Of a DNA stretch of 64,000 nucleotides, positions 7,958 through 23,151 are shown in pieces (within the stretch, counting starts at the first letter, position 1; each line of letters begins with the position of its first letter). The stretch is taken from assembly GCA_033763315.1 (NCBI GenBank), contig JANRKS010000032.1, forward strand, positions 320,001-384,000, given 5' to 3'. Made by a program: the position numbers and the translations under genes. Origin of the DNA: Deltaproteobacteria bacterium. GTDB taxonomy: Bacteria > Myxococcota_A > Polyangia > Fen-1088. A model generated the notes under the pieces. That model made no database searches. It worked only from the letters and a program-made list of their open reading frames with translations, and was not told where the DNA came from.

Positions 7958-10477
7958 TTGCCCGCCGTGTCTTTCCTGAACCCTAAACTCACGCACCTAG
8001 GCGAACGTTACGAACTCAAAAGCCAAGCGGGCACGGGTGGCATGGGGACGGTGTTTTCCGCCTACGACCGCCTCACCCGCCAGATGGTGGCCGTCAAAGT
8101 GCTGCACGGCAAAGGCGACACCGACGCCGCACGCTTCGAACGGGAAGCCGAACTGCTGGCCGAGCTGCGCCACCCCGCGATCGTGCGTTTCATTGATCAC
8201 GGCACCACGTCGCACGGAGAACCCTATTATGTAATGGAGTGGCTGGAGGGTGAAACGTTGGATGAACGTTTGGCCCGCGGCACATTGATGCCCAGTTTGG
8301 TGGCGCGTTTGGGCGCGCGGGTGATGGAGGCGTTGACGGTGGCTCACGAAAAGGGCGTCATTCACCGCGACATCAAGCCGACGAATATCTTTCTTTCCGG
8401 TTACCGCGTGGCCGACGCTAAGGTGATCGATTTTGGTGTGGCTCGCAAAACGGATGATGCCTTTCGTTTAACAAAACGGGGCAACACCGTGGGAACGCCG
8501 ATGTACAACGCGCCCGAGCAGGCGCGCGGCAAAGGCGATCTGGATGGACGCGTGGATGTGTTCGCGCTGGGCTGCGTGATGTACGAGGCCCTCACGGGCG
8601 AGCCTGCGTTCGCGGGTGATTCGCCGGGGCAAGTGATGTCGCGCATCGCGGGCGGGCAAGGCCCCGACCTGAGCAAGCGCCTGGTGACGCTTGATTCCGA
8701 GTTAAAGATGGCCTTGGCCTCGATGCTTTCTCACAACCGTGAGGATCGCCCCTCCGATCCCGCGGCCTTGTCGAAAACATTGGCGGCGATCGCCGATCGT
8801 CTGGCGCCACTGGAAGTGCCGATCGTGCCGTCACACACAGCGAACGTGCCTCCCAAGCGCACGGGCAAAGACGCGCTTTCGCACAATGAGCAGCGTGTGA
8901 TGACCGTGCTTGTGCTGGCGCGCTTGAGCAACCTGCAAGAGCGGGACATCAACGCCAACGCAGCGATGCGCGCGAGTTTGCTTTCGGACGATGTGGTGGC
9001 GGTGCTGGCGACGCTGCTTGAACCTTATGGCGGCCGCGTGGATCGCTTGCTGGATCGATCGGTGATCGTCACGGCGCCGGCGCTGCCTTCGGTGACCGAA
9101 CAAGCGGAGCAGATCGGCCGCATGGGCCTGCAGGTTGTGTCACGCTATCCAGACCTTTCGGTGGCGATGGCCACGGGCCGCGCGGTGTTGTTGGCGCGTT
9201 TGCCTGCAGGAGAAGTGATTGAACAAGCGGCGATGCTGCTCGAAGGTGGGGCGCCGGGTGTGGTGGTGATGGACGACACCTCGGCGCGCTTGCTCGCGGG
9301 CCGCTTCAGTGTGCTGCACGAACGTTCACAGCACATTTTGATGAGCGAACGCGACGGCGGCCTATCGCCGCGCCGTATCTTGGGCGAAGTGACGCCGTTT
9401 TGTGGCCGCGAGCGCGAGCTCGCTTCGTTGACGGGGCTTTTGGCCGAGTGTGTGGCCGACGATGTGTCACGCGCGGCGGTGATCGTGGCGGGGGCGGGCG
9501 TGGGCAAAAGCCGCCTGTTGGCCGAATGGGTGCGCCGCATGCGCGCCACGGCCGAGGATGTGGTGGTGATGCGCAGCCGCGCGATCCCCTTGAACGTGCC
9601 GCAACCGTTTGCGGCGTTGGGCGGCTTCTTCGCACAAGCCAATGTGTCGCCCGATCTGGATCCGGCGATGGCAAGCGAAGTGTTGAGCGATTGGCTCAAG
9701 GCTGCGTGCAAACAGCAACCGGTGATCGCGATCTTAGAAGACGCCCACGTGGCCGACACCAGTAGTTTGCAGTTGCTGGACAGCTTGCTGGCCCGGCTTG
9801 AGACGTTGCCGTTCTTGGTGGTGCTGACCGCGCGCCCTGAACTGGATGAACGCCTTCCGGATCTGTTCGAATCGCGGGCCCCGATGCGCATGCGTTTGCC
9901 TCCGTTGGCGAAACGTCATGCCGAAGTGGCGCTGCGAGGCCTGTTGCCCACGAGCCGTCCGGATTTAGATGAATGGATCTTGTCGCGGGCGCGAGGCAAC
10001 GCGTTTTGCTTGGAAGAGCTCGCGCGCCATTCGTTGCTGCCGGGCCGCGCGACCCTGCCCGAAACGGTGCTCGGCTTGGTGCACGCGGAGCTTGATGTGT
10101 TGGGCGGCGAGGGCAAACGCTTGCTGCGGGCCGCGAGTGTGTTCGGCATGTCGTTCACCACGGCGGGTGTGGCCGCTTTGCTTGGCGAAGCCACAGCGCC
10201 GCTGCTGGAAGAGCTCCTGGCCGGCCTGGCCGAGCGCGGGTATCTTGAACACACCCCGTTGAGCCCTGATGGCGAGTGGCGTTTCGTGGAGCCCGTTGTC
10301 CGCGAAGTGGCCTACGACACGCTGCCCGGCAGCGATCGCATTTTGGGCCGCCGCTTGGCGCGCGCCTTCCTCAGCAACGAGGGCCACGCCATCCCCACGG
10401 CCTTGGCCCCCGGCGAATCAAAGACCGAGATGACGCCCAGCCAGCTGCCAGCTCTATCGTTCTTGGCGCGGCGTTAA
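7958..10477 (+). CDS. Ser/Thr kinase - degenerate cyclase-like - STAND/AAA ATPase, no C-terminal TPR region
   Basis: GTGGMGTV, HRDIKPTN, DFG, GTPMYNAPE; FCGREREL, Walker A AGAGVGKS, Walker B ILEDAH; GNAFCLEEL; ends shortly after VREVAYDTL. Confidence 0.88.
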   Translation: MPAVSFLNPKLTHLGERYELKSQAGTGGMGTVFSAYDRLTRQMVAVKVLHGKGDTDAARFEREAELLAELRHPAIVRFIDHGTTSHGEPYYVMEWLEGETLDERLARGTLMPSLVARLGARVMEALTVAHEKGVIHRDIKPTNIFLSGYRVADAKVIDFGVARKTDDAFRLTKRGNTVGTPMYNAPEQARGKGDLDGRVDVFALGCVMYEALTGEPAFAGDSPGQVMSRIAGGQGPDLSKRLVTLDSELKMALASMLSHNREDRPSDPAALSKTLAAIADRLAPLEVPIVPSHTANVPPKRTGKDALSHNEQRVMTVLVLARLSNLQERDINANAAMRASLLSDDVVAVLATLLEPYGGRVDRLLDRSVIVTAPALPSVTEQAEQIGRMGLQVVSRYPDLSVAMATGRAVLLARLPAGEVIEQAAMLLEGGAPGVVVMDDTSARLLAGRFSVLHERSQHILMSERDGGLSPRRILGEVTPFCGRERELASLTGLLAECVADDVSRAAVIVAGAGVGKSRLLAEWVRRMRATAEDVVVMRSRAIPLNVPQPFAALGGFFAQANVSPDLDPAMASEVLSDWLKAACKQQPVIAILEDAHVADTSSLQLLDSLLARLETLPFLVVLTARPELDERLPDLFESRAPMRMRLPPLAKRHAEVALRGLLPTSRPDLDEWILSRARGNAFCLEELARHSLLPGRATLPETVLGLVHAELDVLGGEGKRLLRAASVFGMSFTTAGVAALLGEATAPLLEELLAGLAERGYLEHTPLSPDGEWRFVEPVVREVAYDTLPGSDRILGRRLARAFLSNEGHAIPTALAPGESKTEMTPSQLPALSFLARR

Positions 10478-10540
10478 GGCGGGGCTACCGCTTCGCATCC
10501 TCTTGAAGGATAACGCGACAGCAAAGGCGCTCTGCGTCTA

Positions 10541-22100: not shown

Positions 22101-23151
22101 ACAGAGTTTCTGAGACTTGCGTGGTCACAGGATGTTGATCGACTTCGCTACTCGCAGGTGAGATCAGTAGCAGTGCGTGCACGCGCCGTTCACCCGAGCC
22201 AATGCTTGACGGTTGCTGACGCGGCGGGGCCTCAGGGCGTGCAAGCAAGGTTGGTAGTACCCGTTCGAGGTTTTGCACCACAAGTTTTGCGTTGGGTGTA
22301 CGGCGTTCGCGATCTTTGAGCAGCAAGCCCGCGAGCACGTCCTGCAGGCCTGGATCAACGTCAGGGCACAGTTGAGCCAATGGCACATGATCGCTAAAAC
22401 AAATCTTTGCCAGCGTTGCCAACGCAGAATCGCCCACGAACAAAGGCTTTGCGAGCAAACACTCAAGCAGCACGCAGCCCAACGAAAACAGGTCGGCACG
22501 CCCATCGAGATCAGCTTCACCGCGCGCCTGTTCGGGCGCCATATACATCGGCGTGCCCACCCAGTGGCCCGTACCTGTGACACGCAGAAAATCAACGTGA
22601 CGGGCGATCCCGAAATCAAGCACCGTGACTTGATTGAGATCGTCATCCACCACCATGAGGTTTTCCGGCTTGATGTCGCGGTGAATGATGCCGTTGGCGT
22701 GCGCCATGGCCAAAGCCGAAGCCACGCGCATACCCACGCGCGCCGCATCCGCTTGTGACAGGGGCCCCTGCCGCAAGCGTTGCTTCAAGGTTTGCCCGCG
22801 CAGCAGAGCTGTGGCCACATAGCGCTCACCCGCTGCACTGACGCCATGATCGATGTAGGCCACGATCGCAGGGTGCGAGAGCGTGGCCAAAAGCGCGCCC
22901 TCGCGCGAGAACCGCTCCGCCAGGCCGGTGCCAGCGAAGATCTTCAGCGCCACATCGTGGCCCGTGGCGGTGTCCTCGGCCACCACAACGTGCCCCGACG
23001 AACCGCTGCCTAAGGCACCGCGCACACGAAAGCGGTCGGCGAATAGAGTGCCCGCCGCCAGCAGCCGCCCCAACGGCGCATGCCGCACGTCGGCCGGCTC
23101 TGTGCCTGCTGTGCCAGTCGTTCCGCGCTCGGGTATGACGAGCCGTGCCAC
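19195..23151 (-). CDS. Ser/Thr kinase - degenerate cyclase-like - STAND/AAA ATPase - TPR-like protein
   Basis: [65 protein letters not shown]; helical repeats in C-terminus. Confidence 0.92.

Follow-up and report, generated by a model that had tools for sequence, protein, structure and literature searches.

A 24-residue peptide gene and its partner kinase gene: a conserved, apparently undescribed module in the Polyangia

We analyzed a cluster of five genes located between positions 7958 and 23151 of a 64,000-nucleotide stretch of DNA (hereafter the window) from a deltaproteobacterium of the class Polyangia (assembly GCA_033763315.1, contig JANRKS010000032.1, positions 320,001 to 384,000 of the forward strand). 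The cluster comprises three genes encoding paralogous kinases with a STAND-type ATPase (K1, K2 and K3), a tiny open reading frame (ORF) of 24 amino acids (aa) and a gene for a regulator with an FHA domain. Our main finding is that the tiny ORF and the gene of the TPR kinase K2 next to it belong to a module that is real, conserved and apparently undescribed. The way in which this module works would correspond only partly to what was proposed in an earlier note, which had been made from the letters of this DNA.

The peptide gene and the kinases

The five genes lie on a chromosome contig with 60% G+C. They are listed below with the signals that surround the tiny ORF; positions are those of the window and nt stands for nucleotides.

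7958-10477, plus strand: K1, 839 aa; Pfam Pkinase 5.4e-46, AAA_16 4.5e-13; without TPR
12526-16572, plus strand: K2, 1348 aa; Pfam Pkinase 3.8e-47, AAA_16 1.5e-12, TPR_12 1.1e-5
16676-16709, plus strand: candidate operator made of a pair of CGTCA-N6-TGAC inverted repeats spaced by 18 nt, 99-117 nt before the ATG
16783-16787, plus strand: ribosome-binding site AGGAG, read from the sequence, 5 nt ahead of the ATG (CAGGAG in the sister species G002)
16793-16867, plus strand: 24-aa peptide gene, encoding MKIKSKSGVRAGGLTSSNHNRTLL, a single unit of the KAGG...NHNR family
16884-16907, plus strand: intrinsic-terminator-like hairpin with T-run, 17 nt 3' of the 24-aa ORF
17772-19190, plus strand: regulator of 472 aa with FHA and NtrC-family AAA+ domains; Pfam FHA 6e-13, Sigma54_activat 2e-49; GAHSQA loop
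19195-23151, minus strand: K3, 1318 aa; Pfam Pkinase 3e-37, AAA_16 5.2e-12, weak TPR_19 and TPR_2

The 24-aa ORF starts 220 nt past the stop codon of K2 (16572). In its product, the basic head K-S-G-V-R-A-G-G precedes the tail L-T-S-S-N-H-N-R-T-L-L, and this product matches the hidden Markov model of its family with an E-value of 2.2e-5. The sister species G002 possesses at the syntenic place, on the same strand and 3' of its K2 orthologue, an ORF of 25 codons, MKNVKVKSGVKAGGLGTVNHNRGLL. Fourteen of the 19 aligned codons specify an identical residue, 11 of them through synonymous changes, so that at the protein level the peptide is better conserved than its neighbor K2, whose orthologue in G002 displays 45% identity over the C-terminal 823 aa. 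When the spacer between K2 and the ORF is aligned between the two species, only the operator, the ribosome-binding site and the ORF itself stand out, the rest having diverged. GC hairpins with T-runs are likewise observed 3' of the small ORFs of other genomes. Pfam and NCBIfam, queried with the peptides at lenient thresholds, returned no credible family, and a search of the intergenic DNA in 41 relatives gave matches limited to the part occupied by a Uma2 gene (see below) and to small pieces. Altogether, the 24-aa ORF is, judging from its pattern of substitutions, a real gene under protein-level selection. The earlier note had described it as independently punctuated, which is borne out by its own AGGAG, by the terminator-like hairpin and by the conservation in G002.

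The Gly-loop, the VAIK-type Lys and the HRD, DFG and APE motifs of Hanks kinases are all found in K1, K2 and K3. The P-loop ATPase of K2 contains the Walker A motif APAGGGKS and the Walker B motif VVLVFEDLHW, and together with the TPR it gives the protein the composition of a STAND/NLR-like NTPase with C-terminal repeats. K2 and K3 share 37% identity across about 1000 aa, and a hydropathy scan of the three kinases detected no membrane-spanning segment outside the folded domains. Pfam, the motifs, the hydropathy and the K2/K3 identity thus agree with the earlier description of three paralogous soluble kinase-STAND proteins, two of them with TPR tails. The "cyclase-like segment" which had also been attributed to them finds weak support. 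An inter-domain profile built from five paralogs gave matches to class III nucleotide cyclases of the PDB (E 0.013, 0.038, 0.11, 1.1, 1.4 and 1.6), but these are six of ten weak matches, of which the top one is an unrelated apolipoprotein. Pfam Guanylate_cyc has no match in K1-K3, and K2, whose closest match in NCBIfam is the model TIGR03903 ("TOMM system kinase/cyclase fusion protein"), scores 298.9 bits against it, below the cut-off of 705.75.

Since open frames of about 830-880 aa are common among the relatives of K1, the short form of this kinase is probably natural and not the result of a truncation. In the kinase tree, K1 pairs with a G005 kinase from an open frame of 1083 aa, and K3 groups with two kinases encoded on contigs 21 and 35 of the same genome (C21 and C35). 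This genome contains eight kinase-STAND paralogs, five of which belong to the three loci with a peptide motif that are described below; near the other three (C19, C1 and C40) a search for this motif found no peptide-like ORF, a search that a peptide of another type would escape. K2-type kinases are widespread, being present in 78 of 89 genomes of the host family within the class Polyangia, with 1-8 copies each and in stable clades.

The pairing within the genome and among relatives

A six-frame translation of the 7.63-Mb genome contains 12 matches to the G-G...N-H-N-R motif. They are confined to three loci, namely the window, contig 21 and contig 35, and none is located in a kinase. At each of these loci, the gene of a kinase-AAA_16-TPR protein is accompanied by a peptide gene and by the gene of an FHA regulator. 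The peptide genes of contigs 21 and 35 have 134 and 115 codons, with six tandem units each, of 21 or 18 residues; they are convergent with a kinase-AAA_16-TPR gene of 1364 or 1366 aa and divergent from an FHA/AAA+ regulator gene. Because the motif occurs at only three places in the genome, each time beside a kinase-AAA_16-TPR gene and an FHA regulator gene, the cluster of kinase, peptide and regulator is, as judged from this distribution, far from chance.

The TGGCAC element of the six-unit gene of contig 21 is preceded, at a distance of about 100 nt, by three direct copies of GTTGGGACTC and an inverted GGGACT...AGTCCC (L006:9520-9570), and four GGGGCT repeats are present at the matching position of L007. 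These repeats are candidate binding sites for the divergent regulator.

We searched a profile of the repeat unit over 401 genomes of the class. The KAGG...NHNR family is present in 45 of them, with 36 of 71 genomes in the host's own family and eight in three other families. A search of a protein collection with the six-unit paralog returned only seven nameless metagenome proteins among 8000 scored candidates. The number of units per gene ranges from one, in the window, to more than 15 across the family, and from two to more than 15 in 40 repeat-peptide loci that were examined together with their surroundings (at most 10 kb on either side, less where the contig ended). The tandem units are imperfect, 17-21 aa long, with conserved Asn and Gly turn positions; their invariant parts are [IV]-K-A-G and [NQ]-H-[NS]-[RK], and the last unit is often atypical. 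In L044, L045, L046, L047, L052, L053, L060, L067, L072, L079 and L080, this last unit is different, K-A-G and N-H-N being separated by a longer and more hydrophobic stretch (5-8 residues). Several repeat-peptide genes of metagenome-assembled genomes appear frameshifted (L044, L048) or are masked in part by X (L061, L070, L076). This is probably an error of repeat collapse, and the unit counts are unreliable there.

A kinase gene is found within 600 bp of the peptide gene in 26 of the 40 loci and within 10 kb in 30, ten loci having no kinase gene within this distance. The partner kinases of these other genomes are composed of a kinase domain, one hydrophobic helix at about residues 345-440 (11 of the 13 examined) and a C-terminal TPR region of about 500 residues. 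As a single membrane helix separates the kinase from the TPR domain, the latter would be extracytoplasmic in these membrane-type receptor kinases. In the genome of the window, no membrane receptor-type (KT) kinase was detectable and the NHNR genes pair with soluble K2-type kinases; the pairing would thus have survived a change of kinase architecture. The same 10-kb surroundings contain Peptidase_C39 ABC exporters in 10 of the 40 loci and DUF5916 in 13. The earlier note had called for a survey of gene neighborhoods, and a conserved linkage between the peptide and kinase-STAND-TPR genes is indeed what we found, at three loci of the host genome and in other genera.

Some neighbors of the repeat-peptide genes deserve mention for themselves. 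A CBM9-like/DUF5916 protein of about 860 aa is encoded next to them in L008, in L010 and in 13 of the 40 loci L041-L080, and could be an outer-membrane partner. In L068 (7550-9787) and L073 (8177-9790), the gene directly upstream of a two-unit peptide gene, in the place of the kinase, encodes a regulator whose loop is the canonical GAFTGA; an FHA domain was searched for in it and not found. In L009, the receptor kinase (7099-9897, minus strand) carries an N-terminal zf-HC2 zinc finger of the anti-sigma type, and a JmjC/cupin hydroxylase gene (11166-12443, minus strand) lies 1 kb from the peptide gene.

A second family of small ORFs was identified beside the K2-type kinases. Among 40 regions around such kinases, nine have a tiny ORF directly at the 3' end of the kinase gene, namely the G002 ORF and eight ORFs of 21-22 residues with the consensus MKKKxGLKVKSKVRSGGGxWPx. 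These GxWP ORFs have in common with the NHNR units a basic head ending in G-G, whereas their tail differs, having 5-6 residues and no repeat. The GxWP profile matches 21 of 89 family genomes (11 of 11 in genus g16, 7 of 13 in g7). A cross-check of coordinates for the 17 matches at E 1e-8 or better revealed that 14 adjoin a K2-type match, the other three being on short contigs. When the neighbors of the small ORFs were checked for an exporter, a transcription factor or a tailoring enzyme, the kinase turned out to be the sole conserved one. In a tree of 48 kinases, those linked to a peptide or a regulator fall into three clades, and no such link is seen in two others with 19 rows in total. Explaining the labels on this tree takes 10 changes; the mean after shuffling is 13.3, and none of 200 shuffles was as low. 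As split kinase genes were left out of this tree, it undercounts the linkage. By these comparisons of sequences and gene order, the pairing of peptide and kinase is conserved in two kinase architectures.

A possible circuit, its operator and its regulator

We tentatively propose that the core of the system is a two-gene module, made of a tiny, separately transcribed peptide gene and a TPR Ser/Thr kinase gene (in the window, the 24-aa ORF and K2), which could work as follows. The peptide, either whole or as its variable C-terminal tail cut behind the K-A-G-G head, would be the cognate ligand or modulator of the TPR sensor of the kinase. Its binding would switch the STAND ATPase, by which the Hanks kinase would be activated. 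Phospho-threonine made by K2 and/or K3 would then be read by the FHA domain of the neighboring AAA+ regulator. This regulator, or another dedicated factor, would act on the paired CGTCA-N6-TGAC operator and close a feedback loop. We infer all of these elements, that is binding, processing, any export and re-import, phosphorylation and the factor that binds the operator. The peptides have a common head with a variable tail, some of their genes have a single unit and their partners carry TPR, all of which suggests that they would be processed ligands.

The operator provides an argument of its own. CGTCA-N6-TGAC inverted repeats are present upstream of all ten small ORFs beside K2-type kinases, which belong to three genera. 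With a strict pattern, six of the ten have two sites separated by 18-20 nt and located between about -84 and -117 relative to the ATG, and a second pair is observed about 100 nt further upstream of several small ORFs. The genome of the window contains 424 single loose sites and one pair only, that of 16676-16709. This uniqueness argues for a dedicated regulator, and the operator is, to judge from the distribution of its sites, dedicated to the peptide gene.

The regulator could also fit the proposed circuit. Its FHA domain (PF00498, aa 60-123) contains the sequences FGR, SGQHA and NSTNG, and it is by conserved Gly-Arg, Ser-x-x-His and Asn-Gly positions that FHA domains read phospho-threonine. 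It is followed by the AAA+ domain (PF00158, 168 bits, aa 157-314) with the Walker A motif GETGVGK. The genes of the regulator and K3 are convergent and 4 nt apart. Elsewhere, a regulator gene immediately adjoins a kinase gene in 4 of the 40 K2-type regions; the two genes are convergent as in the window in G408 and G352, and form convergent or tandem pairs in G017 and G001. In G411, of genus g16, a stretch of less than 2.5 kb contains, one after the other, a regulator gene, three pairs of operator sites, an ORF of 22 codons, a terminator and a kinase gene in convergent orientation. On this comparison of gene order, the FHA regulator is recurrently adjacent to these kinases.

The genome of the window encodes 22 proteins with a GAFTGA loop against six with GAHSxA, the latter being the window regulator and its five closest paralogs. 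The four regulators closest to that of the window (46-50% identity) include those of the C21 and C35 loci. The loop reads GAHSQA in the regulators of the window, C21, C35 and C1, and GAHSTA in that of C2 and in those of other genomes. Near the paralogs C1:142k and C2:432k, a peptide-like ORF was sought by its motif and not found, and here too a peptide of another type would escape. The GAHS[QT]A pattern is present in 79 of 89 family genomes, with 1-6 copies each and no control match. Its phylogenetic profile was considered and rejected, the pattern being too widespread to discriminate.

Several findings weigh against the circuit proposed above, and the first ones concern its output. In the window regulator, the GAFTGA loop that contacts sigma-54 is replaced by GAHSQA, which makes a sigma-54 step doubtful. 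Upstream of the 24-aa ORF there is no sigma-54 -24/-12 element (tested as TGGCAC-N5-TTGC) and only cGGCAC-N6-TCT is present; over positions 7000-25000, a scan found none in intergenic DNA, the two strict matches falling inside metH and K3. The activation of the peptide gene through sigma-54 that the earlier note had put forward is therefore not borne out in the window, where the step is either wrong or unproven. Likewise, the protein that it had called an FHA enhancer-binding protein does possess the FHA domain and the NtrC-type AAA+ domain, but neither the GAFTGA loop nor a -24/-12 target promoter. The remainder of its outline, namely a peptide gene, a TPR kinase and an FHA regulator, is partly right.

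Concerning the regulator, it is absent within 10 kb of the orthologous pair of G002 and of five of the nine other small-ORF regions, and FHA regulators are found within 10 kb in only 4 of the 40 NHNR loci. In G001, which belongs to the same genus, a repeat-peptide gene has neither kinase nor regulator within 10 kb. Concerning the ligand, the window peptide has the G-G, but it is not an invariant feature of the family, in which KAAG, KAGA, KAGL, KAGQ and KAGK are also encountered. With so many relatives lacking G-G, a strict model of double-glycine cleavage is weakened, and a C39 peptidase cannot be the general means of cleavage. No exporter is encoded in the window, and as K2 is soluble, an extracellular signal would need export and uptake functions encoded elsewhere. 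The genome encodes C39 domains at two places only, one of them 6.1 kb away from the C21 peptide gene and the other some 165 kb from the window. Finally, the beta-solenoid fold that is predicted, with moderate confidence, for the multi-unit relatives would be no less compatible with a structural or effector product than with the precursor of a signal. A co-fold of the TPR tail of the C21 kinase (aa 880-1364) with the six-unit protein gave a score of 0.00 in two runs without controls and counts neither way.

How the window peptide gene could be transcribed can be discussed from its promoter region. A scan for sigma-70 promoters over 16400-17900 gave 0 sites; a TTGnnn-N17-TCnAAT sequence under the proximal operator site, read by eye, is an unproven candidate. 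Changes of the Phe or Thr of the GAFTGA loop usually abolish sigma-54 activation, and NtrC-family proteins without this loop act at sigma-70 promoters. By analogy, the GAHSQA loop would fit a window promoter without a sigma-54 element, and from its sequence this promoter does not look sigma-54 dependent. The situation differs for the multi-unit genes of other genomes, 16 of 30 of which are preceded by TGGCA[CT]-N6-TGC; shuffling predicts 0.08 such cases, and the opposite strand has 0. For these relatives, the promoters speak in favor of the sigma-54 step of the earlier note. The element lies 16-94 nt before the annotated ATG, and 54-94 nt before it in 14 of these 16. The multi-unit genes of C21, C35 and G001 have TGGCA[CT]-N6-TGA in its place. 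Contrary to a sigma-54-independent reading, GAHSTA regulators are encoded near canonical sigma-54 promoters in three of four loci.

Alternative readings and known systems

Another hypothesis is that the peptide or repeat protein is the regulated output of the system and not its input, the kinases sensing something else. The multi-unit form would then be a secreted beta-solenoid, an amyloid-like fiber subunit or a cationic bacteriocin-like peptide, of which the window gene would be a minimal version. The best AlphaFold2 model of a six-unit paralog (from an alignment of 12 rows) is all-beta with strictly periodic strands, with a predicted local distance difference test (pLDDT) of 72.4 and a predicted template modeling score of 0.67, although the four other models reach only pLDDT 43-55. 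An ESM Atlas model resembles beta-helical proteins, and beta-helices, FapC, CsgA and bactofilin make up most of the Foldseek list, but no match in it has an E below 0.06. The copy number from 1 to more than 15, the conserved Asn/Gly turn positions and the atypical last unit could also be expected of such a product. So could the Peptidase_C39 and DUF5916 neighbors counted above, the C39-ABC exporter with HlyD 6.1 kb from the C21 peptide gene, and the canonical sigma-54 promoters of 16 of 30 multi-unit genes. On the other hand, a one-unit product of 21-24 aa could not form a solenoid alone, and no Sec signal peptide is present. The GxWP small ORFs are free of repeats and nevertheless have the same head and the same kinase partner. 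Furthermore, the near-universal partner is a TPR kinase and not a gene for secretion or assembly. On balance, we consider this hypothesis somewhat unlikely.

One would also wonder whether the cluster serves an immunity of the NLR/Avs type, which was the alternative envisaged in the earlier note. The STAND-TPR part would sense a phage protein and the kinase would be the effector, the peptide and the regulator being accessory or unrelated. The genes next to the module have to be considered here.

4014-7820, plus strand: MetH, cobalamin-dependent methionine synthase, complete with five Pfam domains, directly upstream of K1; housekeeping
10580-11737, plus strand: AAA_14/DUF4143 ATPase gene between K1 and K2; PADLOC PDC-S01, 299.7 bits
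17026-17704, minus strand: Uma2-family nuclease gene in two overlapping frames of 148 and 98 aa; Pfam 2.5e-18 and 1.3e-7

A STAND ATPase with C-terminal repeats is the sensor architecture of Avs and NLR proteins, the kinase domains match the defence kinases PD-T4-6 and mad6, and the DUF4143 ATPase matches the PADLOC candidate PDC-S01. The window also contains the broken Uma2 nuclease gene, and G408 has two DUF4143 genes and an integrase fragment between its two modules. However, the PADLOC matches of five kinases (PD-T4-6, mad6, MkoA and PglW) fall within about the first 420 residues, the kinase domain itself being covered at about aa 10-350, and none in the STAND-TPR part, so that an immune role finds no support beyond generic kinase-domain matches. 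The presence of K2-type genes in 78 of 89 family genomes, in stable clades, is unlike that of patchy defence islands, and the genes conserved as their partners are a tiny peptide gene, which has a dedicated operator, and that of a transcription regulator. DUF4143 homologues, for their part, occur in only 2 of the 40 K2-type regions. Thus, an immune function appears improbable.

The DUF4143 ATPase was itself considered as a member of the module and rejected because of this low count; the genome has eight copies, counting that of the window. In G408 and G352, its homologues lie between the regulator-kinase and peptide-kinase pairs, the integrase fragment of G408 being alongside. From its two overlapping frames, the Uma2 gene between the peptide gene and the regulator gene is probably a frameshifted pseudogene that does not belong to the system.

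It could further be assumed that kinase and peptide form a pair of the kind that yields ribosomally synthesized and post-translationally modified peptides (RiPPs). The kinase would modify the peptide, for example by Ser/Thr phosphorylation in the manner of class III/IV lanthipeptide or TOMM systems, and the TPR would be the domain that binds the leader. TIGR03903 is indeed the best NCBIfam model for K2, the LanL and LanKC models match the kinase domain, a conserved head with a variable tail resembles a leader with its core, and in the sequences as read a Ser or Thr usually stands 7 residues before the end of the KAGG head. Nevertheless, the TIGR03903 score is far under its cut-off, this Ser/Thr position is not invariant, and Cys is almost entirely absent from the peptides. 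No cyclodehydratase, dehydrogenase, lyase, radical-SAM or other tailoring gene is conserved nearby, and Pfam scans of the neighbors found no YcaO/cyclodehydratase. In addition, the receptor-type partners place the TPR across a membrane helix from the kinase. A RiPP-type pair is thus highly improbable.

Finally, it is scarcely credible that the 24-aa ORF is a decaying, functionless remnant of a multi-unit gene and the cluster a by-product of kinase gene duplication: the ORF does have one unit against six in its paralogs, lacks the sigma-54-like element of the paralogous loci and adjoins the broken Uma2 gene, but the synonymous changes relative to G002 indicate selection on the protein, and its ribosome-binding site, terminator and genome-unique operator are conserved and common to the small ORFs of other genera.

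We therefore return to the peptide as a ligand of the kinase. A broader and rather unlikely extension of this proposal would be that a lineage of the Polyangia runs an undescribed peptide communication. Signals of 5-11 residues would be cut from a K-V-K-S-x-V-K-A-G-G head and read by the TPR of a kinase, with an output through GAHSxA FHA/AAA+ regulators. The precursors would have one unit or up to more than 15, and the sensor would be extracytoplasmic in the membrane kinases or intracellular in the NLR-like kinase-STAND proteins. If true, a bacterium would use the logic of eukaryote-style peptide/receptor-kinase and NLR-kinase systems, with paralogous pairs resembling pherotypes.

Peptide signalling with dedicated receptor pairs is textbook knowledge for Firmicutes. 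To our knowledge, essentially nothing of the kind has been described in myxobacteria. These have very large sets of Ser/Thr kinases and of FHA regulators, for most of which, as far as we know, no input is known. The module would offer a concrete input-output pair for a kinase-STAND-TPR protein, made of a 24-aa peptide that can be synthesized, a 34-bp operator unique in the genome and an FHA regulator next door, and its natural variants across about 45 genomes would make a mapping of specificity possible. Several of its parts are nameless in the libraries searched, namely two families of very small genes, likely missed by gene callers, a GAHSxA clade of NtrC-type proteins and a repeat family that may form beta-solenoids. 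The parts of the open-access literature consulted contain no description of tiny or tandem-unit peptide genes paired with TPR kinases, of GAHSxA regulators, or of this kinase architecture together with peptides.

A parallel can be drawn with several known systems. Like the amyloids CsgA and FapC and the NLR-associated amyloid motifs HET-s and BASS, the repeat proteins have imperfect tandem units with Asn and Gly, a predicted beta-solenoid-like fold and a link to STAND proteins. Unlike these, they have neither a Sec signal nor a CsgG or FapF homologue, the kinases are free of the motif, and the window gene has a single unit. The kinases recall TIGR03903 proteins, the mycobacterial PknK and LAL-type regulators by their N-terminal kinase, their putative cyclase-homology region and their long C-terminal region in about 1350 aa, and TIGR03903 proteins are also found beside small precursor peptides. 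In contrast to these, K2 stays under the TIGR03903 cut-off, has no thiazole/oxazole biosynthesis genes nearby and carries no LuxR-type DNA-binding domain.

As to the regulator, Jelsbak, Givskov and Kaiser reportedly described in 2005 enhancer-binding proteins of myxobacteria that contain an FHA domain and would receive their input from Ser/Thr kinases. The protein studied here is similar in the fusion of FHA with an NtrC-type AAA+ domain in a kinase-rich genome, and is encoded directly beside a kinase. It is distinct in that it belongs to a GAHSQA/GAHSTA clade tied to kinase-STAND-TPR and tiny peptide genes, without a sigma-54 target promoter in the window.

Double-glycine pheromone and bacteriocin peptides of the ComC/ComAB/ComDE type are exported by Peptidase_C39 ABC transporters (eLife 2019, PMC6363468). 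The module resembles these systems by its short head ending in Gly-Gly with a short variable tail, by the sensor kinase gene beside the peptide gene, and by the C39-ABC and HlyD genes of the C21 locus and the C39-ABC genes within 10 kb in 10 of the 40 loci elsewhere. It differs from them by a Hanks kinase in the place of the histidine kinase, by an FHA/AAA+ protein in that of the response regulator, by units concatenated up to more than 15 times, by a GG that is not invariant and by the lack of an exporter in the window.

The last parallel, also drawn in the earlier note, is with the RRNPP systems of Firmicutes (Rap, NprR, PlcR and PrgX with Phr-type peptides). Their receptors are transcription factors or phosphatases, and their peptides carry secretion signals and return through Opp. 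In the present case, which comes from a myxobacterium, the receptor would be either a Ser/Thr kinase that carries a STAND ATPase or a receptor kinase of the membrane, the output would be a phosphorylation, and the 24-aa product has neither a hydrophobic signal segment nor an export signal. The comparison therefore holds as an analogy of layout: in both, the gene of a TPR sensor stands beside a very small peptide gene with a variable part, which might confer specificity, and several paralogous pairs are present per genome.

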